Positions 54,821 to 64,000 of a DNA stretch of 64,000 nt are shown one piece after another. The stretch lies in the sequence record NC_041936.1; one strand, written 5' to 3'. Under the pieces are notes generated by a model, which was not told where the DNA came from, did not search any database, and saw only the letters and a program-made list of their open reading frames with translations. Position numbers and translations under genes: made by a program. Positions within the stretch are counted from its first letter, which is position 1. Each line of letters opens with the position of its first letter. Source of the stretch: Escherichia phage ECD7.

Positions 54821-54849
54821 ATTATAGGGGATCACCGATCCCTTGTCAA
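54821..54849 (-). promoter_or_regulatory. promoter-leader cassette copy a (TTGACA, 17-nt spacer ggggatcggtgatcccc-like, TATAAT)
   Basis: Minus-strand -35 at 54844..54849, -10 at 54821..54826. Confidence 0.6.
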
Positions 54850-54857
54850 CAACTTTT

Positions 54858-55376
54858 TTAGTTATTTTTTAATTGCTCATCTTGCAATAGGGCAATCACA
54901 TGCTGGCGATGTTCTTCCGATTGAGGCACACCGAAAAAGTTTGTTTTGTAGAAATACTCTAATCGGTCTTCTCGTGTGCTCTCTTCCATCATGATCGCGG
55001 GTAGTCCGAGATTTCGGAAACGTCGCTTTTCTGCTGGCGTAAAATCACTGTAATACAGCATATAATCATCATTACCAGCAATGCTAAACTCATCCTTCAT
55101 GAAAGAGAATATTGCGTTTAAACGCTGTTTACCGTCCACGATTTCGATTTCATAGCGAGAGCCATCATCAATCTTAGCCATTGCGATAGCACCAACCGGA
55201 AAATCATTAATCAGGTTTTCGATAAACATACGTTTGTTTTCTGTGTCCCATACCAAAGGACGCTGATAATCTGGGTTCATGTTGATATAGCCATCTTCTA
55301 ACCATGCTTCGTAAACAGAGATGACAAAGTTTTTAGTATTGGTATAGTAACGGCGTTTAGGCGTTAAACGGTTCAT
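54858..55376 (-). CDS. DUF262/ParB-like nuclease-superfamily protein (172 aa from ATG 55376)
   Basis: Motifs DYQRPLVW and IVDGKQRLNAI; start has GGAG SD and abuts upstream stop. Confidence 0.55.
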   Translation of the reverse strand: MNRLTPKRRYYTNTKNFVISVYEAWLEDGYINMNPDYQRPLVWDTENKRMFIENLINDFPVGAIAMAKIDDGSRYEIEIVDGKQRLNAIFSFMKDEFSIAGNDDYMLYYSDFTPAEKRRFRNLGLPAIMMEESTREDRLEYFYKTNFFGVPQSEEHRQHVIALLQDEQLKNN

Positions 55377-55377
55377 A

Positions 55378-55707
55378 TTATAGTCTCCTGAATGGATCAT
55401 CACGTAAATCAATATCTTTTAAGAACTCATCCCATGAATGGCGGATATTGTTCTTAATTCTCCAGATAAGCGCAGGGATTGAACGCTCTCCCATCTGGAA
55501 GTAAGGATCATATGATCCGTATGCCCAATATGCTACTACAATTCCACAATCAGCGCAATAGTATTCTATTTCACTTGCTGGCGACCAAAGTCCATCAATA
55601 TGATCAGTGATCTTGCTTTCGATGTTATGGCTATGACAATCAGGGCAACGGATGCAATGACCTTGTTTATCGTAATTTGACGTTAGAGAATACTTAAACA
55701 ATCTCAT
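55378..55707 (-). CDS. small zinc-ribbon protein (109 aa)
   Basis: CIRCPDCH ... CADCG Cys pairs. Confidence 0.55.
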   Translation of the reverse strand: MRLFKYSLTSNYDKQGHCIRCPDCHSHNIESKITDHIDGLWSPASEIEYYCADCGIVVAYWAYGSYDPYFQMGERSIPALIWRIKNNIRHSWDEFLKDIDLRDDPFRRL

Positions 55708-56423
55708 TATAGATCCTTATTGGCTTCAAATACTGCCTTTGCGAATCCTCGCGGCGTAAGTGACCTGATAGTCTTTGTTCTGGTTCCTTTCCCGCCTAGC
55801 TTAGAATGCTGTTTGCTGTACCCTTTATTAATCTGCAACGGTTTCTTTTCTGGCATTATAAAGCCTTGTCCGGTCCATAAGCAAGTCTTTTTCGGGTACA
55901 TATCACGGGCGGCAATATACTCAGGAAACGTAGGATGCTTATCATCTTCCGGCAAATAACCGCCATATTCCCACGGATGGAACATGTAATCAGGCTTACG
56001 CCACATACTAGAGATAACGCTTACAGGATTCTCTATCATATAGGGAACTCCTAGCCATTCACCCAAATAAGCGGTTATTTTAGCTGCCCGTACATCATGA
56101 ACTTGAATCAATGGTCCTTGTTCTCGTTTCTTTCGTTCAAAGTGTGCAGCGCCACTAACAGCTAAATTGGTGCACGGTGGGAATGCAAATATAATATCCG
56201 GTTTCCCCCATTCAAGGTCCATTGCTCTTTCCAGCCAGTTCAAATCAATCCAGGTGTTTACATAGGTAATGTTTGGATGTTCAAATCTGGTATTATACTT
56301 TTTGTATGTACCGTGGTCGGCGTCATCCGCATTAAAGCAGACTACCTTATGACCTGCTTTAGCCCATTCTAGCCCCATTATCCCCGATCCGTCAAAGTTG
56401 CAGAATATTAATTTTTGTTTCAT
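55707..56423 (-). CDS. C5-cytosine methyltransferase-like protein (238 aa)
   Basis: FDGSGIMG (motif I-like), FAFPPCTNLAVSG (PC motif IV-like), MIENPVS (ENV motif VI-like); shorter than typical C5-MTases. Confidence 0.5.
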   Translation of the reverse strand: MKQKLIFCNFDGSGIMGLEWAKAGHKVVCFNADDADHGTYKKYNTRFEHPNITYVNTWIDLNWLERAMDLEWGKPDIIFAFPPCTNLAVSGAAHFERKKREQGPLIQVHDVRAAKITAYLGEWLGVPYMIENPVSVISSMWRKPDYMFHPWEYGGYLPEDDKHPTFPEYIAARDMYPKKTCLWTGQGFIMPEKKPLQINKGYSKQHSKLGGKGTRTKTIRSLTPRGFAKAVFEANKDL

Positions 56424-56665
56424 ATACGACCCTTTAACCCAGCACAGATTTTAGTCGGTTCTTTACCGTGCCACATTAAGTAAAGTCCGTTAGTGCGGCC
56501 TTGTTTTGTATATGATTCTTTTCTGATCTTCTTATAGTATCGTGCTTCCTCAGCCGATTGTTTAGAATGCCGATCATAAAGGAAGAGGAACAAAGGCCAA
56601 CCATTAGCGGCCTTAATGCAGTTATTAAGAAATTCCTTATTGCGTTTAATTAATTTTCTTTTCAC
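56420..56665 (-). CDS. hypothetical basic protein (81 aa)
   Basis: ORF coupled to flanking genes by 4-nt overlaps. Confidence 0.5.
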   Translation of the reverse strand: MKRKLIKRNKEFLNNCIKAANGWPLFLFLYDRHSKQSAEEARYYKKIRKESYTKQGRTNGLYLMWHGKEPTKICAGLKGRI

Positions 56666-56913
56666 GCTGCCCCCATTGGTTTGATAGTAACAGAATCTAA
56701 AAGACCTTTGTTAGCCAGTTCGCGGCAAGTTTTCAGATCCGTAACTTCCCAGCCAGCCGCAATCAGGTTATCAATGAGGCTGTTAGCAACTTCCTCGCTC
56801 ATGAAAGAGCACTGTTTGCCGATGGTGTAGCGCACACGCTGTAATTTCAGTTTACGGAAGCCTTTAACGTTCAGGTCTTTAGCGATTTTCTTTGCGGTTT
56901 CGATGTTAGCCAT
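56662..56913 (-). CDS. hypothetical protein (83 aa)
   Basis: ORF with GGAGAATC SD, downstream of promoter copy b. Confidence 0.55.
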   Translation of the reverse strand: MANIETAKKIAKDLNVKGFRKLKLQRVRYTIGKQCSFMSEEVANSLIDNLIAAGWEVTDLKTCRELANKGLLDSVTIKPMGAA

Positions 56914-56953
56914 TGTTTGATTCTCCTAAGTGGTATCTCGTCTTGATGGTTGT

Positions 56954-56982
56954 ATTGTAGGGGAGTTATCCTCCCCTGTCAA
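56954..56982 (-). promoter_or_regulatory. promoter-leader cassette copy b (TTGACA, palindromic spacer ggggaggataactcccc, TACAAT)
   Basis: -35 at 56977..56982, -10 at 56954..56959. Confidence 0.6.
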
Positions 56983-56996
56983 CACTTTTTATAAAA

Positions 56997-57164
56997 TTAT
57001 TTGTTAATTTCTGGTGCGTTGCTCGGATAGTAACCTTCTTTAACGCCCAGGTATTTCGCAACCATCCCTACAATCTTCTGTGCTACTACAATGTCAAATT
57101 TCAGATAATCTTCGCCGTGGGTTTCAATGATATATGCTTCACATGCTGCTTTAGTCTCGAACAT
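56997..57164 (-). CDS. hypothetical small protein (55 aa), paralogue of 60255..60422
   Basis: MFETKAACEAYIIETHGEDYLKFDIVVAQKIVGMVAKYLGVKEGYYPSNAPEINK; below ORF-track size cutoff. Confidence 0.6.
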   Translation of the reverse strand: MFETKAACEAYIIETHGEDYLKFDIVVAQKIVGMVAKYLGVKEGYYPSNAPEINK

Positions 57165-57197
57165 TTTGATTCTCCTATTTCGTTTCGGTATGGGTGT

Positions 57198-57226
57198 ATT
57201 ATAGGGGATCTCCCGATCCCCGTCAA
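57198..57226 (-). promoter_or_regulatory. promoter-leader cassette copy c (TTGACG, spacer ggggatcgggagatccc, TATAAT)
   Basis: -35 at 57221..57226, -10 at 57198..57203. Confidence 0.6.
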
Positions 57227-57240
57227 CAACTTTTTTAAAA

Positions 57241-57522
57241 TTATTCGTGATTAGTTTCGATGTTGTGCATTTTGCACCAGTTCAGCCAATCGCCCAGATC
57301 TTGATAGTTGATGCTTTTATCTGCTGCCATCGTTTTTGTCTTGATACCCATATGTGCGTTATGAGTAAGCATTTTTACAGTGAACTCAATTTTATCGCCT
57401 TTAGCTTTAACATCAACCAGTTTGGTCCACTGGCTACCAGCGCCGCGAATGTTCATGCCAACGATGTTTCCGATGTATGCTTCTTTGTTTTTCAGGATTT
57501 CGGTTGCTTTGATGAATTTCAT
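57241..57522 (-). CDS. hypothetical protein (93 aa)
   Basis: ORF downstream of cassette copy d. Confidence 0.55.
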   Translation of the reverse strand: MKFIKATEILKNKEAYIGNIVGMNIRGAGSQWTKLVDVKAKGDKIEFTVKMLTHNAHMGIKTKTMAADKSINYQDLGDWLNWCKMHNIETNHE

Positions 57523-57565
57523 TTTTGATTCTCCAGTTCGTTTCGGTATGGGTGTATTATGCTAT

Positions 57566-57594
57566 GTTCTTACTTTGGTGTCAACAACTTTTTA
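57566..57594 (-). promoter_or_regulatory. promoter-leader cassette copy d (TTGACA, 17 nt, CATAAT; non-palindromic spacer)
   Basis: -35 at 57589..57594, -10 at 57566..57571. Confidence 0.55.
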
Positions 57595-57861
57595 GATATT
57601 TTCAGAAATAAATTTTAAAACTTGACGTAAATGTTTCTCATCTTTGATAGTCGCCGGAAGTTCTTCTTTTACTTCCTGTGCAAGATAGATATTTCCGTTC
57701 CAAGTGAAAGATCCGTCTTCGTTTACGCGATAGCTGAACATCCACTCGCAATCATTTTCGATTTCATATACACACAGAAGGGTGTAATCGTTAAAGCTAT
57801 TGATTTCAAGGTCGAAGCCGTGACGTTTTGCAAAGTTGGTAGTGGTTTTAGTCAGTGCCAT
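57592..57861 (-). CDS. hypothetical protein (89 aa)
   Basis: ORF downstream of cassette copy e. Confidence 0.55.
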   Translation of the reverse strand: MALTKTTTNFAKRHGFDLEINSFNDYTLLCVYEIENDCEWMFSYRVNEDGSFTWNGNIYLAQEVKEELPATIKDEKHLRQVLKFISENI

Positions 57862-57901
57862 TGTTTGATTCTCCTAAGTGGTATCTAGTTTCGATGGGTG
57901 T

Positions 57902-57930
57902 ATTATGCTATACACAGGATCTGGTGTCAA
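57902..57930 (-). promoter_or_regulatory. promoter-leader cassette copy e (TTGACA, 17 nt, CATAAT)
   Basis: -35 at 57925..57930, -10 at 57902..57907. Confidence 0.55.
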
Positions 57931-57954
57931 TGCCTTTTTTAAAATTTTATGCAA

Positions 57955-57980
57955 TAAAAAAGCCGACGCTATGGTCGGCT
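57955..57980 (-). terminator. rho-independent terminator (agccgac-gctatg-gtcggct, T6 on minus strand)
   Basis: Follows gene 57988..58296. Confidence 0.6.
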
Positions 57981-57987
57981 AATAAAA

Positions 57988-58296
57988 TCATTTAGACAAA
58001 TAATCATTCTGTGCAATCCGGTCGGCGTATGCTGGTGTTATGTCAATCGCCAGCACTTTAACGCGTGCTTTCTTGCGACCTGGGTTTTCTCGTAACCAGT
58101 GCTCATGACCGTGAATATTTTTATACTGCGATGCTTCTTCGAAGGTACGGATCGGACCTGGGTAATCAGCGTAAAGGATCTCTAGATCTTCGGTGATGTA
58201 AAAATATACATCGTAATTGCTGTTCTCTAGCTTAAGCAGAGACTTTCGGAACATTGGGAGATTTTCGCGGGTAAATTCAAAGATATTATCTTTCAT
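57988..58296 (-). CDS. HxHW-family small protein, member 1 (102 aa)
   Basis: HGHEHWLRENPGRKKARVKVLAIDI. Confidence 0.6.
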   Translation of the reverse strand: MKDNIFEFTRENLPMFRKSLLKLENSNYDVYFYITEDLEILYADYPGPIRTFEEASQYKNIHGHEHWLRENPGRKKARVKVLAIDITPAYADRIAQNDYLSK

Positions 58297-58320
58297 AGTA
58301 TTATCCTCAATAGTTGGATG

Positions 58321-58340
58321 AAAAGGGGCGTTAACGCCCC
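58321..58340 (-). terminator. rho-independent terminator (ggggcg-ttaa-cgcccc, TTTT on minus strand)
   Basis: Follows gene 58347..58634. Confidence 0.6.
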
Positions 58341-58346
58341 CATATA

Positions 58347-58634
58347 TTAAAACAGTCCTTCCTGTACACCGTAGTAGAGTTCGTCGCTGATAATTTCATT
58401 AATGCGACGGTGTGCATATTCCTGATTTGCGAAGTTGTCAGCAAGTTCTACTTTAGTTTCGCCGTCATGAGTCCATTTAGTGATAACTTTACCATCTGCA
58501 AATTTGAAGTTGAACTCTTTAGCTACTGCATCGCGTACCAGACGTGCAAACTTATTGTTGCGGATTGCATTGTCGGTTTCGTGTGCAGCGTGAGCAAATT
58601 TGTTAACTTTCAGAGTGATAGTGATGTATGCCAT
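58347..58634 (-). CDS. hypothetical protein (95 aa), AKEFN-family with 61640..61951
   Basis: RLVRDAVAKEFNFKF vs LIREVRKALAKEFNTKI. Confidence 0.55.
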   Translation of the reverse strand: MAYITITLKVNKFAHAAHETDNAIRNNKFARLVRDAVAKEFNFKFADGKVITKWTHDGETKVELADNFANQEYAHRRINEIISDELYYGVQEGLF

Positions 58635-58680
58635 AATTTGATTCTCCTAGTTAGAAAGTGTATCTCGTTTCGATGGGGAT

Positions 58681-58709
58681 ATTATGCTATACCCCCGATC
58701 TGGTGTCAA
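58681..58709 (-). promoter_or_regulatory. promoter-leader cassette copy f (TTGACA, 17 nt, CATAAT)
   Basis: -35 at 58704..58709, -10 at 58681..58686. Confidence 0.55.
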
Positions 58710-58715
58710 CACTTT

Positions 58716-59009
58716 TTATAAAATAATTTTTTGATATTTTTCTATGATGTTCGTGTAAGTCACATCAACCGCTAGCACCGTTGCTTCGAATCCACCGTTT
58801 AGCCAATGGCTATGATCATGGTCGTGAAAGAAACCTAGTCCAGTACGAAGACCTTCTTTATATTCTGCGCGTACATTCAGTTTGTCGTCGATAAACAGAT
58901 AAAACCATGAATTTTTACTAGGATTGATGATACAACCTTTCAGATTAGGGAGAATATCACGACTAAGAATAAATTTATCACCTACTTTGAACATAATATT
59001 AGTCCTCAC
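58716..59009 (-). CDS. HxHW-family small protein, member 2 (97 aa)
   Basis: HDHDHSHWLNGGFEATVLAVDV. Confidence 0.6.
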   Translation of the reverse strand: MRTNIMFKVGDKFILSRDILPNLKGCIINPSKNSWFYLFIDDKLNVRAEYKEGLRTGLGFFHDHDHSHWLNGGFEATVLAVDVTYTNIIEKYQKIIL

Positions 59010-59319
59010 TTATAAGGTCAAACCAATTGTTTTTCGCATAATGCTTAATGCGTGCTTGATCTGCTTCCGCTGGTGATAGATTCCATGCAACCACTACAAC
59101 TTCTGACGCATCGTCATCAGTTTCTGATACCCAATGATTGTGATTCATACAGTTATTTGCTATCGAGTGAGCAAATGATTTCATCACTGGAGACGTATAA
59201 TCATAGTAACGGATTTTCAGATTTTCATCAACATACAAATAGATCGTATAAGGTTTATATTCAGTAACCAGTAACAGACAGTTACGCAATTCTGGGAAAA
59301 TCTTTTTAGTTAATTTCAT
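58999..59319 (-). CDS. HxHW-family small protein, member 3 (106 aa)
   Basis: MNHNHWVSETDDDASEVVVVAWNL. Confidence 0.6.
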   Translation of the reverse strand: MKLTKKIFPELRNCLLLVTEYKPYTIYLYVDENLKIRYYDYTSPVMKSFAHSIANNCMNHNHWVSETDDDASEVVVVAWNLSPAEADQARIKHYAKNNWFDLISED

Positions 59320-59521
59320 ATTCTAGTTCTCCGTAATACACAGTAATCCATTTTTCTTCATACTTTGTATCTTTCCAGCACACAACCCCGTTTACTGTGC
59401 AATCTTTGGAATTGACGAATGATTCATATTGTTCTGCATCTTCCATCATTTCATGAGCGGTCTTTTCATCGAATATATCGCAGATCGCTTTATATGCTCG
59501 ATAATCTTTAAATTTGCTCAT
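59306..59521 (-). CDS. hypothetical small protein (71 aa from MSKFKDYRAY), tandem paralogue 1
   Basis: N-terminus and MMEDA motif shared with 59524..59733. Confidence 0.55.
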   Translation of the reverse strand: MSKFKDYRAYKAICDIFDEKTAHEMMEDAEQYESFVNSKDCTVNGVVCWKDTKYEEKWITVYYGELEYEIN

Positions 59522-59523
59522 AA

Positions 59524-59733
59524 TTAACACCACTCAAGAGTTTTTGAAAACACATCTATCCATTGTTGAGTATATGCGGTTTCTTTCCATGATACAATAC
59601 CAGTCGAATAATGGTTTTTGTTTCCAGAAAAGGACGGGCATTTTGATGCATCTTCCATCATCTTTTCGGCGAACTCTGGTGCGTATACTCGCAAGATCTG
59701 TTGATATGCTTTGTAGTCTTTAAATTTGCTCAT
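59524..59733 (-). CDS. hypothetical small protein (69 aa), tandem paralogue 2
   Basis: MSKFKDYKAY...EKMMEDASK. Confidence 0.55.
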   Translation of the reverse strand: MSKFKDYKAYQQILRVYAPEFAEKMMEDASKCPSFSGNKNHYSTGIVSWKETAYTQQWIDVFSKTLEWC

Positions 59734-59998
59734 AATCGTTAACTACCTTATCAGCTTCTTTTATTGTTTTTACATCAACTGCGATAATACGTAAAGGTTC
59801 GTCGAAGGTCCACCAATGATCGTGAATATCAGCTTGTGATTTATCACCAAAGGAATCACGAATATCATTTTTACATTTATAGCTAATGTGACCGTTATAG
59901 TCAACATAAAGGTAATTATCGAAAATCGGCGTTTTTAAGATCATACCGAAAAATCTTTCTTTGTGTGTCTTATCCAGCGTTGCAGTAATTCGCATCAT
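59720..59998 (-). CDS. HxHW-family small protein, member 4 (92 aa)
   Basis: ADIHDHWWTFDEPLRIIAVDV. Confidence 0.6.
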   Translation of the reverse strand: MMRITATLDKTHKERFFGMILKTPIFDNYLYVDYNGHISYKCKNDIRDSFGDKSQADIHDHWWTFDEPLRIIAVDVKTIKEADKVVNDYEQI

Positions 59999-60010
59999 AA
60001 TATATTCCTC

Positions 60011-60190
60011 TTAGAAAGGGATGGTCATTTCTTGAGCTTGTACATTCTCGTTAGGATTAAACTTCATCCAACCGATATTGTCTACCAGCATATACACATT
60101 TTTATCATATCCTACGTGAGTAGTCAACACTAAATGTGCTTTACCTTCAACGATGATTTCCATGTACTTCTGAACTTCGATAGCTTTCAT
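60011..60190 (-). CDS. hypothetical small protein (59 aa)
   Basis: ORF with GGAGAATC SD; below ORF-track size cutoff. Confidence 0.5.
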   Translation of the reverse strand: MKAIEVQKYMEIIVEGKAHLVLTTHVGYDKNVYMLVDNIGWMKFNPNENVQAQEMTIPF

Positions 60191-60222
60191 TTTGATTCTC
60201 CGTTTGTTGTCTTGATGGGAGT

Positions 60223-60251
60223 ATCTTACTACTCCCTTTAATCATTGTCAA
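60223..60251 (-). promoter_or_regulatory. promoter-leader cassette copy g (TTGACA, spacer with palindrome gggagta-n6-tactccc, TAAGAT)
   Basis: -35 at 60246..60251, -10 at 60223..60228. Confidence 0.5.
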
Positions 60252-60254
60252 CGA

Positions 60255-60422
60255 TTATTTGTTAATTTCCGGTGCGTTGCTTGGATAGTAACCTTCTTTA
60301 ACACCCAGATATTTTGCAACCATTCCGGTGATCTTCTGTGCCACTACGATATCGAATTTCAGGTAGTCTTCACCGTGGGTTGCTACAATGTATGCTTCGC
60401 ATTCTGCTTTAGTCTGGAACAT
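60255..60422 (-). CDS. hypothetical small protein (55 aa), paralogue of 56997..57164
   Basis: MFQTKAECEAYIVATHGEDYLKFDIVVAQKITGMVAKYLGVKEGYYPSNAPEINK. Confidence 0.6.
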   Translation of the reverse strand: MFQTKAECEAYIVATHGEDYLKFDIVVAQKITGMVAKYLGVKEGYYPSNAPEINK

Positions 60423-60455
60423 TTTGATTCTCCTTTATCTCGTTGGTATGTGTGC

Positions 60456-60484
60456 ATTATAGGGGATCACCGATCCCCTGTCAA
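60456..60484 (-). promoter_or_regulatory. promoter-leader cassette copy h (consensus TTGACA, 17-nt perfect palindrome ggggatcggtgatcccc, TATAAT)
   Basis: -35 at 60479..60484, -10 at 60456..60461; two GATC sites in spacer. Confidence 0.65.
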
Positions 60485-60489
60485 CAACT

Positions 60490-60783
60490 TTATAATGCTT
60501 TATATGCGTATTTCATAAATTTGTCTGCCACTTCATTGGCATGTTCAGATTCTACGCCTGATTCGAGAACAATAGCTAGGTCGGTTTCGTCATTCCCGCC
60601 GTACCAATGATTTGATGTTCGATTTTTTTCAATTGGAAATTGGTCACTTTTATCTGTGCGACAAAATACATCTAAATGCTCGTCGATGTAAAAGATCCAA
60701 TCTTCATAAAGAATAACGGTATTAGCCAGATTTTTATTGCCTTCAACGAAAGGTTCGGCTACAAACAAATTAGTATGTTCCAT
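60490..60783 (-). CDS. HxHW-family small protein, member 5 (start likely ATG 60783)
   Basis: TSNHWYGGNDETDLAIVLESG; track ORF extends to 60840, overlapping upstream ORF. Confidence 0.5.
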   Translation of the reverse strand: MEHTNLFVAEPFVEGNKNLANTVILYEDWIFYIDEHLDVFCRTDKSDQFPIEKNRTSNHWYGGNDETDLAIVLESGVESEHANEVADKFMKYAYKAL

Positions 60784-60799
60784 AGTAATTTCCTCAAAA

Positions 60800-60991
60800 T
60801 TATACAGCTTCGTAAACTTCCCAATGTCCAACACCAGCACGCTTAACGAAAAGGTTTTCTTTGATGTTATTCATAAACGTCTGGATGGATTTAATGCGGT
60901 TTGAAGGTTTCCATTCTTCGTTGGCATTGCGTCGATACATCATAACATTACCAGTTCGCTTATATTCAGCAACCATTTTAAGACCACACAT
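60800..60991 (-). CDS. hypothetical small protein (63 aa), ends with GHW motif
   Basis: GAGGA SD before ATG 60991; C-terminal GVGHWEVYEAV may be a truncated family member. Confidence 0.4.
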   Translation of the reverse strand: MCGLKMVAEYKRTGNVMMYRRNANEEWKPSNRIKSIQTFMNNIKENLFVKRAGVGHWEVYEAV

Positions 60992-61048
60992 AATATTATC
61001 CTCAATTTGCGGGAGAGTATTACCCCTCCCAATGATTGTTATGTTATA

Positions 61049-61369
61049 TCACACAAAATGGCGTGTCAATGCTTCTTTTGCGGTTCCGCTAAGACTTTCG
61101 ATCTCGCCTGGCATAACATCAACCGCCAGAACTTCTACAACATCCTCGGACCCTAACCAGTGAGTATGGCCTTTGTAGAACTTGATAACCAGACTACCTT
61201 CCTCGTCCCATTTAACGCTATCGCTAGCCCACCACACATCACCGTCGATAAAGTTGATGTAAAGCACACTACGCAACATTGAATTAATTACTTTCAATAC
61301 TGCGCCTTTCATCTCTTCCACGGTATGGTCTTCCATTTTGAAGACCATACCTACCTGAACTTTTGCCAT
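61049..61369 (-). CDS. HxHW-family small protein, member 6 (106 aa)
   Basis: KGHTHWLGSEDVVEVLAVDV. Confidence 0.6.
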   Translation of the reverse strand: MAKVQVGMVFKMEDHTVEEMKGAVLKVINSMLRSVLYINFIDGDVWWASDSVKWDEEGSLVIKFYKGHTHWLGSEDVVEVLAVDVMPGEIESLSGTAKEALTRHFV

Positions 61370-61386
61370 TTAGTCACCTCTCTTTA

Positions 61387-61566
61387 TTACATAACAATCA
61401 CGCCAGCCGTTGAAAGTTGATGTTTCAACTGAGCATTTTCTGCTACCGTCAAATCAATGATTTCTTGTGACGCTGCAATCATATATCCATTGGTGATATT
61501 GTTTTGCATCAGTTCAATGGTTTCTTCGTTGTAGCGGATTTTAGCGATGATTTCGTTGAAGTTCAT
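61387..61566 (-). CDS. hypothetical small protein (59 aa)
   Basis: ORF directly downstream of cassette copy i; below ORF-track size cutoff. Confidence 0.5.
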   Translation of the reverse strand: MNFNEIIAKIRYNEETIELMQNNITNGYMIAASQEIIDLTVAENAQLKHQLSTAGVIVM

Positions 61567-61600
61567 GATTGATTCTCCTAGTTCGTTTCGGTATGTGTGT

Positions 61601-61630
61601 AGTATAGGGGATCTCCCGATCCCCTGTCAA
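61601..61630 (-). promoter_or_regulatory. promoter-leader cassette copy i (TTGACA, 18-nt palindromic spacer ggggatcgggagatcccc, TATACT)
   Basis: -35 at 61625..61630, -10 at 61601..61606. Confidence 0.6.
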
Positions 61631-61639
61631 CAACTTTTT

Positions 61640-61951
61640 TTAAAGTTTTTCCATGATAACGGTCATAATTACATCTTCTGCGCGAGCGGTCAGATTATCA
61701 GCGTCAGCATGTGGGCGGTTGGTTGTTACAGAGATAACACCGTTGCGCACTGGTTTGATATTGATATCAAGATGATCCGCGAAACGTTCGCCAGTTACAG
61801 AATGAATTTTGGTGTTAAATTCTTTTGCCAGTGCCTTGCGAACTTCACGAATCAGGGTAGCGTTTTTCAGTTGGTTCTCCGCGCTCATGGTCTTCTGGGT
61901 GTTCATGGTTCCGTCGAAGTCAATCATTGGCAGCGTTACGATGTATTTCAT
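61640..61951 (-). CDS. hypothetical protein (103 aa), AKEFN-family with 58347..58634
   Basis: Shared AKEFN motif. Confidence 0.55.
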   Translation of the reverse strand: MKYIVTLPMIDFDGTMNTQKTMSAENQLKNATLIREVRKALAKEFNTKIHSVTGERFADHLDINIKPVRNGVISVTTNRPHADADNLTARAEDVIMTVIMEKL

Positions 61952-61996
61952 TTTTGATTCTCCGTTTAAGAAAGTGTGTTTCGTTTTGATGTGTGT

Positions 61997-62025
61997 AGTA
62001 TAGGGGATACGTGATCCCCTGTCAA
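61997..62025 (-). promoter_or_regulatory. promoter-leader cassette copy j (TTGACA, spacer ggggatcacgtatcccc, TATACT)
   Basis: -35 at 62020..62025, -10 at 61997..62002. Confidence 0.6.
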
Positions 62026-62038
62026 CAACTTTTTTGAA

Positions 62039-62515
62039 TTATTTTTCTTGATGCTCGCGCTCGTACTTTTCGAAATAAAATTCTACTGGCTGGTCATGAA
62101 TTGACAGCAAGCCAAAGCGTTTAGCCGCTCGCAATCCCATATTGCGCTGAATGTACTTCTGGAAGTTCTCGCGTATACACTTACGCCAGTATTCTAAGCC
62201 CATACAGCTTTTATAAAGATTGCATTGTACACACGCCGGATTCATGTTATCAAGTATATCATGTTCCGGTTTATGCATTCCTACAACCTTATACTTCCAC
62301 GACCCATCATCATTACGGGCAATTCGTCCATTTTCATCATAGACTACCTTTGAGCGTCGCAATACTGGTTTGATATGGTCTGCGTGCCAGCGATCCCCTA
62401 GTTCCTCGCCACAATAGGCACAACGCCCACCGTATTTCATTTTCAGGATCTGGCGTTGCTCTTTCTTTGACAATTTTTTAGGTTTAGGGGCTTTCGCCCC
62501 TTCATTATCACACAT
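62039..62515 (-). CDS. HNH endonuclease
   Basis: CAYCGEEL...WHADHIKP...NMNPACVQCN; 158 aa; start overlaps ligase stop by 8 nt. Confidence 0.7.
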   Translation of the reverse strand: MCDNEGAKAPKPKKLSKKEQRQILKMKYGGRCAYCGEELGDRWHADHIKPVLRRSKVVYDENGRIARNDDGSWKYKVVGMHKPEHDILDNMNPACVQCNLYKSCMGLEYWRKCIRENFQKYIQRNMGLRAAKRFGLLSIHDQPVEFYFEKYEREHQEK

Positions 62516-64000
62516 CGAATACCTCTTTTACTGTATTTGCAGTGGTCTTGTCGTAGCGAATACGTTTGATGATTGGGAGAAATAAAGAGAACTCCGGTTC
62601 ATCTTCTTTACGTGATTTGCTGCGGATATACCCGTTGCATGTCATCTCAATGACTTTTCCAATCAGGTTATGACGGTCAGTCCATAACATTTCTCGGTCG
62701 AGTTCATTTCGACGATCGAACGGAATTACACGTTCAGTACCATCATCACCTTTTTCGGTTGTAGTGTCGGTTAATCCCGATCCGGTGTTAGTCATCATTC
62801 GTCCGCACGCACTACGGACAGTAAAACCGCCTACCTTATTGGGGTCTTTACTATGCGGATATACATCAACAATTTCCGCGTCGAAGTCAATCACTTCTTT
62901 AAATTTAACCTGATCTTTACTACGGCGATCTTCAAATACACCATGTAAATTTTTAAGGATAATACCTTCTAAGCCCATGTTTACATAGCGATGATATACT
63001 TCGCGAGCTTCATCGATATTGTTAACTACAGTGTTTTCGATTATCTGAACACGAGGATCGTTAAGTTCTTCAACAATCTGTTTTAGCTCTTCGAATCGAT
63101 CTTTATATTGCTTCGTTGCTTTCTCGTTTCCGTAATACACATCACGGTCGATAACATCCCAGACAGTGTAAACAATACATTGGGCTTCTTCTTTTGGAAT
63201 AGTTCCTTTCAGTGATTTGTTGAGGATACCATTTCCGGTCTGACGATCTGCAACAACGGATTCTTTCACCGCTTCCGCTACTGGCGTTAATGGCATTTCC
63301 TCTTCTTCAAATATCCATGACAGAGTACCATCATAAACGCTCTCAACGAAGTTCTGCGCTGGTGTTTGCGAAAGGGTAGGCATATATACCAATTCGCCAT
63401 CTAGAACAATTCCACGGCCTCGTAGACTCTCTAAAACCGCAAACAAATCATCAAGCCCTTGATAGGTATTACCTGAACGGGTATAGATTGCTAATGTTTC
63501 CCCGTCAATATCAGCCATACCACGAGCGCCATCGCTTTTAAGTTGTGCATACGCCGGATATTTGATATTGGCAATGGTCTTATCAGAACATGACGATGCA
63601 AGGTGGCACGGCTGCTGGGGGATCAGTTTCTTCCATACCTTGTTTGCAGTGGTAGCGGAACAACCGCATTCCAGGTCACGATTCAGGACCATCATTGCAA
63701 CTTTAGCATCATCTTCTGACAAGCAAGTCAGAGTATCGGTAACTAGCTGTAATGCTGCATTACCAGTTACTTGACGTGTGGCAAGTTTATTTTTAAAGAC
63801 TTGTAATGCACCGGATAAAGACAATACAGACGAATAGCGCGATGGTTTATCGTATTTCTTTACGCCAAACGTAACCTGTTTGCAATATGCCAGATAAAAG
63901 CATTCTTTCAGTGTTTCATTGCTTGCAGATTCTTTCAGGATCTTTTCTTTCAGCGATGTTTTGTCTGTTGCTGCAAGCTGATTAATGATATTAAGAATTG
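62508..64000 (-). CDS. 30: ATP-dependent DNA ligase gp30, 5'-truncated by window end
   Basis: KxDGxR adenylation motif in QLKSDGARG; resembles T4 ligase (TGNAA, RDLECG, ASS); minus-strand frame open from 63825 to 64000 with no stop. Confidence 0.85.
   Translation of the reverse strand, partial: ILNIINQLAATDKTSLKEKILKESASNETLKECFYLAYCKQVTFGVKKYDKPSRYSSVLSLSGALQVFKNKLATRQVTGNAALQLVTDTLTCLSEDDAKVAMMVLNRDLECGCSATTANKVWKKLIPQQPCHLASSCSDKTIANIKYPAYAQLKSDGARGMADIDGETLAIYTRSGNTYQGLDDLFAVLESLRGRGIVLDGELVYMPTLSQTPAQNFVESVYDGTLSWIFEEEEMPLTPVAEAVKESVVADRQTGNGILNKSLKGTIPKEEAQCIVYTVWDVIDRDVYYGNEKATKQYKDRFEELKQIVEELNDPRVQIIENTVVNNIDEAREVYHRYVNMGLEGIILKNLHGVFEDRRSKDQVKFKEVIDFDAEIVDVYPHSKDPNKVGGFTVRSACGRMMTNTGSGLTDTTTEKGDDGTERVIPFDRRNELDREMLWTDRHNLIGKVIEMTCNGYIRSKSRKEDEPEFSLFLPIIKRIRYDKTTANTVKEVFDV

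Follow-up and report, generated by a model that had tools for sequence, protein, structure and literature searches.

The HNH endonuclease gene that overlaps the 3' end of DNA ligase gene 30 in Escherichia phage ECD7 (NC_041936.1) accompanies ligase in every Krischvirus genome surveyed and in deeper uncultured lineages of T4-type phages. On balance, it appears to be a long-fixed, selectively maintained nuclease of homing-type ancestry that is co-expressed with ligase. Its universal presence at the ligase and its ligase-like slow evolution make it look like a long-fixed resident and not an actively homing gene. The gene has been in the literature with a putative-HEG label since 2006, and the PeSL boundary next to it since 2010, so that the finding itself is already known; new here are the occupancy survey, the deep uncultured lineages and the comparison of selection on HNH and ligase.

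The HNH gene and its junction with DNA ligase

The sequence analysed, here called the window, is a stretch of 64,000 nt from a Krischvirus (RB49/Phi1-like T4-type coliphage), and 57 full Krischvirus genomes, RB49, Phi1, JSE and GEC-3S among them, match the region at 96-99% identity. The 158-aa HNH ORF that a preliminary description had reported at the 3' end of ligase was confirmed, with the following features around it:

62508..64000, minus strand: DNA ligase gene 30, complete but for its first ~2 codons, located past the window end
62522..62527, minus strand: Shine-Dalgarno AAGAGG, 6 nt 5' of the HNH ATG, within the last ligase codons
62508..62515, minus strand: 8-nt overlap ATGTGTGA of HNH start codon and ligase stop codon, read from the sequence
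62039..62515, minus strand: HNH nuclease CDS, 158 aa, ATG start, orthologue of RB49 ORF212c / phi1 ORF212

From the window end, the ligase frame continues without a stop to a TGA at 62508-62510, and comparison with the 498-aa Phi1 gene places its start codon just outside the window, at about 64002-64004. The HNH start codon is the ATG at 62515-62513; the two genes therefore have 8 nt in common, and this overlap is the same in all Krischvirus loci read. An RBS is annotated in Makalu_002 at the position matching the HNH Shine-Dalgarno, and a search of ligase upstream of HNH for a promoter-like site able to drive the gene found none. HNH is the last cistron of an ORF215-30.3-30(ligase)-HNH block, in which the repair genes pseT and rnlA are also found. 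With ligase overlapped on one side and a PeSL following on the other, it has the form of an intergenic, promoter-less cassette between conserved genes. Nucleotide identity of the ORF ranges from 95.8 to 100% across the 57 phage genomes, and the differences are almost all synonymous; the ORF is not a chance one. Its GC content and codon usage are unremarkable, and its composition is not foreign.

RNA folding revealed a hairpin inside the ORF:

62486..62501, minus strand: GNRA-tetraloop hairpin AGGGGC-GAAA-GCCCCU, nt +15..+30 of the HNH ORF

The hairpin begins 6 nt past the ligase stop codon and is invariant in Krischvirus. The uncultured lineage L021 retains it as GGGGAC-GAAA-GUCCCC, with both sides of the stem changed, at the cost of Ala to Thr and Ala to Val changes in the protein. 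The N-terminal extension that bears the hairpin is found in Krischvirus and L021; lineages L009, L023 and L024 carry neither extension nor hairpin. It may stabilise the ligase mRNA at its 3' end or attenuate HNH translation.

Protein family, conserved residues and predicted fold

The protein passed the Pfam HNH model (PF01844) with 27 bits against a cutoff of 21.4, over the N-terminal half of the model only, because an insertion of about 37 aa splits the motif. A search of PHROG families gave a match to PHROG 2118 'HNH endonuclease' (7.9e-55), as well as matches to 'endonuclease VII' families. The catalytic and zinc-binding core was located as follows:

62219..62422, minus strand: HNH catalytic/zinc core C32-x2-C35, D46-H47, N90, C95-x2-C98, N99 (H-N-N variant)

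An alignment of 58 family sequences shows no variation at any of these eight residues (C32, C35, D46, H47, N90, C95, C98 and N99) or at a C-terminal F146-x-F148-E149 motif, and the catalytic residues are intact in L009, L021, L023 and L024. H47 and N90 are separated by the insertion of about 37 aa, a beta-hairpin. The AlphaFold model computed on the same alignment was confident (pLDDT 93, pTM 0.81) and has the beta-beta-alpha fold of the HNH superfamily. The C-terminal helical region of about 50 aa is conserved; Pfam recognises HNH only in this protein, and no separate DNA-binding module (NUMOD, IENR1, HTH, AP2 and the like).

By sequence profile, the closest solved relative is Gmet_0936 (4H9D), at E 8.9e-5 and 25.8 bits, a remote similarity, and a single-sequence search of the PDB gave nothing below E 0.19. 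Function was not refined by NCBIfam (sub-threshold retron-HNH and Cas9 matches only), by PADLOC (weak generic PtuB/Cas9 HNH matches only) or by a BFVD fold search, whose matches were all unannotated phage HNH proteins or proteins labelled 'endonuclease VII'. From its sequence, the product is predicted to nick or cut DNA.

Occupancy of the ligase-side site

The HNH gene abuts ligase in 57 of 57 full Krischvirus records; a 58th ligase match, a 1.5-kb RB49 fragment, was left out of this count. Scanning JGI metagenomes and IMG/VR with a 24-mer from the ligase 3' end yielded four contigs, each with HNH after ligase. The next ligases in the phage database are at most 44.5% identical, and intermediates were found by searching 5.8 billion proteins with ligase. 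These intermediate lineages are few (four) and known from metagenome contigs only; HNH directly follows ligase in all four, with four different junction geometries. Identities and junctions are as follows:

L021: ligase 72%, HNH 87.5%; TAATG overlap, then PeSL
L009/L010: ligase ~72%, HNH 70%; TAATG overlap, then terminator and plain promoter
L023: ligase ~60%, HNH 57-59%; 16-nt gap with its own SD
L024 (169-kb contig): ligase 50-55%, HNH 60%; 23-nt overlap
L026: ligase 48-52%; no HNH gene

The search for empty sites covered the phage database, IMG/VR and JGI metagenomes by 24-mer, and ligase homologues at 50-72% identity. None was found in the 57 Krischvirus genomes, the four metagenome and IMG/VR contigs or the four deeper lineages. 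The preliminary description had proposed that the gene 30 downstream junction be compared in relatives; the site proved to be always occupied, and the sporadic presence typical of a homing gene was not seen. Part of what it had named as evidence against homing, conservation of HNH at this site, was found in all 57 genomes, the four contigs and the four deeper lineages.

A neighbour-joining tree placed the ligase-linked HNH proteins in a monophyletic group. Their nearest outgroup, P0006 and P0007, comes from contigs of non-T4 phage type, where it lies among genes such as DUF5131 and DUF551, and none of the 38 non-Krischvirus HNH tblastn matches sampled belonged to a T4-type genome. One further locus, L012 (5226-5724; ENA ERZ16268176 scaffold_8678), was not used: it is Krischvirus up to HNH codon 75 and unrelated GC-rich sequence thereafter, and the scaffold is most likely a chimeric metagenome assembly.

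Other homing-type genes were noticed in these loci. In phage E26 (L016, 6013-6461), a gene annotated 'HNH homing endonuclease' adjoins gene 31 and occupies the place of gene 31.1 and cd in the other Krischvirus loci fetched; this gene 31-side HEG is sporadic in the genus, whereas the ligase-linked HNH is fixed. L021 carries at 498-938 a weak GIY-YIG (seg-like) ORF between the ribonucleotide reductase small-subunit gene and rnlA.

Selection, divergence and disrupted alleles

Within Krischvirus, dN/dS was 0.00-0.12 for HNH and 0.006-0.095 for ligase (Nei-Gojobori NG86, ten alleles). In comparisons of the deep lineages, both genes have reached saturation at synonymous sites, and dN(HNH)/dN(ligase) was 0.48 for L021, 1.06 for L009, 1.26 for L023 and 0.81 for L024. 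HNH has thus co-diverged with an essential replication gene, at the protein rate of ligase, as far back as the clade can be followed. A recent lateral transfer, considered for L021 on account of its HNH identity of 87.5% against 72% for ligase, was rejected, as pS was 0.81 and 0.72 and saturated in both. A homing gene, once fixed, is usually expected to decay; the low dN/dS and the co-divergence do not fit this expectation.

The HNH allele of L011 (5001-5477; Logan ERR14656784) differs at 52 of 477 nt, almost all of them third codon positions. Its dS is about 0.7, against about 0.2 for the adjacent ligase (about 3 times), with a step at the gene junction; these values come from an ungapped comparison, as an internal stop breaks the protein-guided alignment. 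Alleles have thus been exchanged laterally as a module within the genus, and exchange of this type would also be expected from a gene-converting element. The internal stop is W110*, in an uncultured contig of uncertain quality. In L031 (MAVA01000210.1, a 1-kb contig likewise of uncertain quality), HNH has three 1-nt deletions, and ORF208-region sequence takes the place of its last ~35 nt. These were the only two disrupted alleles seen; on their evidence the gene is probably not essential, and probably dispensable in the short term.

The PeSL cassette and the recombination boundary

The promoter cassette noted after HNH in the preliminary description was confirmed as a PeSL with its core at 62025 to 61997, followed by the first gene of a variable block:

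61997..62025, minus strand: PeSL core TTGACA-17 nt-TATACT, 11/12 consensus matches
61640..61951, minus strand: ORF210 homologue, PHROG 7474, first gene of the variable block

The conserved cassette lies ten nt past the HNH stop codon. Its 17-nt spacer is the stem-loop GGGGATCACGTATCCCC, with the stem GGGGAT/ATCCCC, and the flanking 17-mer GTTGTTGACAGGGGATC occurs in four copies in the window against 0.01 expected. TTGACA, a GC-rich stem-loop spacer, a -10 box, regional repeats and breakpoints inside the element are all present, as in the PeSLs described from RB49-type phages by Arbiol et al. 2010 and Comeau et al. 2014 (PMC2839356, PMC4122927). GEC-3S has a promoter annotated at the matching position. 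The element serves the next gene as promoter and probably gives the ligase-HNH transcript its 3' hairpin. The 7 kb leading up to ligase (54821-62025, minus strand) contain at least six strict PeSL cassettes, each in front of a small uncharacterised ORF (PHROGs 7474, 14803, 16486).

Other Krischvirus genomes have ORF211 and ORF210, ORF209 or ORF205 in the place of the ORF210 homologue:

HNH-PeSL-ORF210: window, Phi1, FL38
HNH-ORF211-PeSL-ORF210: RB49, E26
HNH-PeSL-ORF209: SFHK24, Makalu_002, L004, L011
HNH-PeSL-ORF205: G5211

The aligned junctions are identical through the HNH stop codon and the PeSL -35 box and stem, and divergence begins after the stem-loop. The HNH 3' end with its PeSL is the edge between the conserved block and the variable (hyperplastic) region. 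The proposal that the HNH gene marks a recombination boundary holds as far as the position is concerned, but not as regards the nuclease, since the breakpoints lie inside the PeSL and are not HNH-related: published PeSL shuffling explains the boundary, and HNH cleavage need not be invoked.

In RB49 (L001, 3557-3901), JSE and E26 (L016, 2636-2980), the PeSL is separated from the last HNH codons by the 345-bp ORF211, whose insertion turns the HNH C-terminus from ...EHQEK into ...ENKE. Microhomology of the GAAAAATAA type, seen at both ends, bounds the insertion within the last codons of HNH. The literature describes ORF211 as homologous to an ORF of a Vibrio fischeri superintegron.

Members of the family in other phages and in plasmids

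Homologues occur in siphoviruses and prophages (PHROG 2118) and as HNH cassettes in conjugative plasmids, at 35-51% identity over about 85% of the length. Those of siphoviruses are in early or replication modules. The homologue of eiAU lies between DNA polymerase and helicase, that of Solent near primase, C5-methylase and ParB, and that of Bcep176 near a methylase and a recombinase. Coliphage 6947 has a 42%-identical homologue (L020, 3471-3908), and Salmonella phage seszw has a clean 463-bp gap at the same site (L029, ~1007-1015), between flanks that are 92% identical; the ORF that precedes the terminase large subunit gene lies ~170 bp downstream of this empty site. Among 244 records with the flanks of the 6947/seszw group, query coverage reaches 80% or more in only 5.

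Enterobacterial conjugative plasmids very commonly carry homologues: a ~40%-identical one was found in 2683 plasmid records, 2434 of them conjugative. The copy of pSLT (L035, 3986-4405) sits inside the F-type tra operon, in the trbC/traN interval, and overlaps traN by 4 nt; an IncHI2 plasmid has another (L036, 3878-4411). Presence and absence in siphoviruses and the copies in plasmid tra operons indicate, therefore, that the family settles as a promoter-less cassette in conserved operons of mobile elements, and with 6947/seszw and pSLT its members are mobile elsewhere, as those of homing genes are.

Discussion

The history that we favour would begin with a family of small free-standing HNH genes whose promoter-less cassettes enter conserved operons in phages, prophages and conjugative plasmids. 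One copy would have been captured beside ligase in an ancestor of the Krischvirus-like T4-type phages and then inherited vertically with ligase, under purifying selection as strong as that on ligase. The gene would be translated from the Shine-Dalgarno embedded in the ligase 3' end, through overlapping start and stop codons and with no promoter of its own. The present-day HNH would then be a fixed resident nuclease, domesticated or 'ex-homing', which is not caught homing, and the recombination boundary would be the work of the PeSL after its stop codon, not of the nuclease. We infer that its selective value lies at the level of the phage; most likely, the role is either the exclusion of co-infecting genomes without HNH or, coupled to ligase, a step in DNA processing or repair. 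A fixed homing gene still cutting heterologous phages would have the same look in these data.

The gene might instead be an active free-standing homing endonuclease of the T4 Seg/Mob kind, which would cut or nick the ligase region of HNH-less relatives; repair from the HNH+ genome would copy the gene with flanking markers and so also create a recombination boundary. This was in essence the preliminary reading of the arrangement, and several of its parts stand: the catalytic site is intact, a promoter-less cassette lies between an essential gene and a variable region, as do segC/F/G and mobA/C/D/E (PMC2988022), and elsewhere the family is mobile, being polymorphic for presence in siphoviruses and found inside plasmid tra operons. 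The L011 allele, with its dS about 3-fold above that of the adjacent ligase, points the same way, the locus having been exchanged separately, and so do published lists in which the gene is a putative HEG (PMC1524935, PMC2993671). The distribution argues otherwise, as no site was empty in the 57 genomes, the four metagenome and IMG/VR contigs or the four deeper lineages, and the HNH-less ligases, at most 52% identical, are too diverged for homologous repair. Nor does the long co-divergence with ligase at low dN/dS agree with the decay expected of a fixed homing gene. Pfam recognises no sequence-specific DNA-binding module, tblastn at 1e-5 gave no T-even Mob among the matches sampled, and the breakpoints sit in the PeSL. 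We therefore regard ongoing homing as unlikely, though far from negligible.

Less probable still, and in our view quite doubtful, is that HNH is a domesticated nicking or repair nuclease partnering DNA ligase (nick and seal), the ligase-HNH operon being a functional partnership with substrates such as damaged or abasic sites or replication or recombination intermediates. Adjacency and translational coupling kept down to 50% ligase identity would suit such a partner, as would a protein that evolves as slowly as ligase, but synteny alone can explain the adjacency. The weak Mn-dependent nicking and AP-site preference of Gmet_0936 (4H9D, H-N-N variant; PMC3765158) offer a precedent, to which the similarity is remote (25.8 bits). 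Repair genes pseT and rnlA share the gene block, the siphovirus homologues sit in replication modules (DNA polymerase/helicase; near primase and ParB) and PHROG matches include 'endonuclease VII' families; against this, the family is dispensable in siphoviruses, two alleles (L011, L031) are disrupted and other T4-like phages do without HNH. A role as a terminase-associated HNH of the HK97 gp74 / GVE2 type, assisting DNA packaging, was rejected on gene context and is very improbable: ligase and small early ORFs are its neighbours and terminase genes lie far off, and the homologues of eiAU, Solent and Bcep176 are in replication modules. Most relatives of 6947 lack the homologue and thus cannot need it for packaging, and T4-type headful packaging uses the TerL nuclease.

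With the long-fixed resident remaining the preferred explanation, the modest addition made here is that one gene of an HNH family that is otherwise mobile has remained with ligase past synonymous saturation, its protein changing no faster than that of ligase. This makes the gene a clean candidate for asking how a homing-type nuclease is domesticated, or persists over long periods, in a virulent phage. It also suggests caution, in that an HNH gene next to a core gene should not always be labelled 'homing'. A bolder idea, which we hold to be rather unlikely, is that ligase-HNH constitutes a conserved functional module throughout one clade of T4-type phages, in which a domesticated, formerly selfish cassette would serve either as a nicking enzyme with products sealed by the co-translated ligase, in repair or replication, or as a weapon against co-infecting phages, and would be restrained by the GNRA hairpin.

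Comparison with known systems

The gene is the same as RB49 ORF212c, phi1 ORF212 and their JSE orthologue, the proteins being 97-100% identical and both position and 8-nt overlap unchanged, and both RB49p212/ORF212c and phi1 ORF212 are already annotated 'HNH endonuclease'. The RB49 gene was placed under 'putative mobile DNA elements' in 2006 (PMC1524935), and a 2010 count has the gene among the 'other HNH' putative HEGs of RB49, phi1 and JSE (PMC2993671). The preliminary reading thus agrees with this putative label. The label rested on the domain match alone, whereas the distribution and selection described here argue for a fixed and not a mobile gene. As regards the element after its stop codon, we find a canonical PeSL, the very point at which relatives switch downstream genes, with the published mechanism operating at this junction.

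In T4, segC/F/G and mobA/C/D/E are promoter-less cassettes in polycistronic units between conserved genes (PMC2988022). MobA-E have in common with the ligase-side HNH an HNH catalytic domain and insertion as a promoter-less cassette into an existing polycistronic unit. By comparison, the ligase-side HNH is shorter (158 aa), has no identified DNA-binding module and is universal instead of sporadic, and no similarity to T-even Mob proteins was found by tblastn at E<=1e-5 among the matches sampled. Gmet_0936 of Geobacter, whose Mn-dependent nicking is weak and favours AP-site DNA (PMC3765158), likewise has the CxxC...CxxC zinc ribbon and an Asn for the last His. Finally, the PHROG 2118 genes of siphoviruses and prophages and the plasmid cassettes (pSLT; pHCM1 HCM1.27c) have the same catalytic and zinc residues and the C-terminal FxFE, and are likewise inserted in conserved operons with overlapping stop and start codons; those copies are sporadic among close relatives, whereas the ligase-linked copies form a clade of their own and are fixed.
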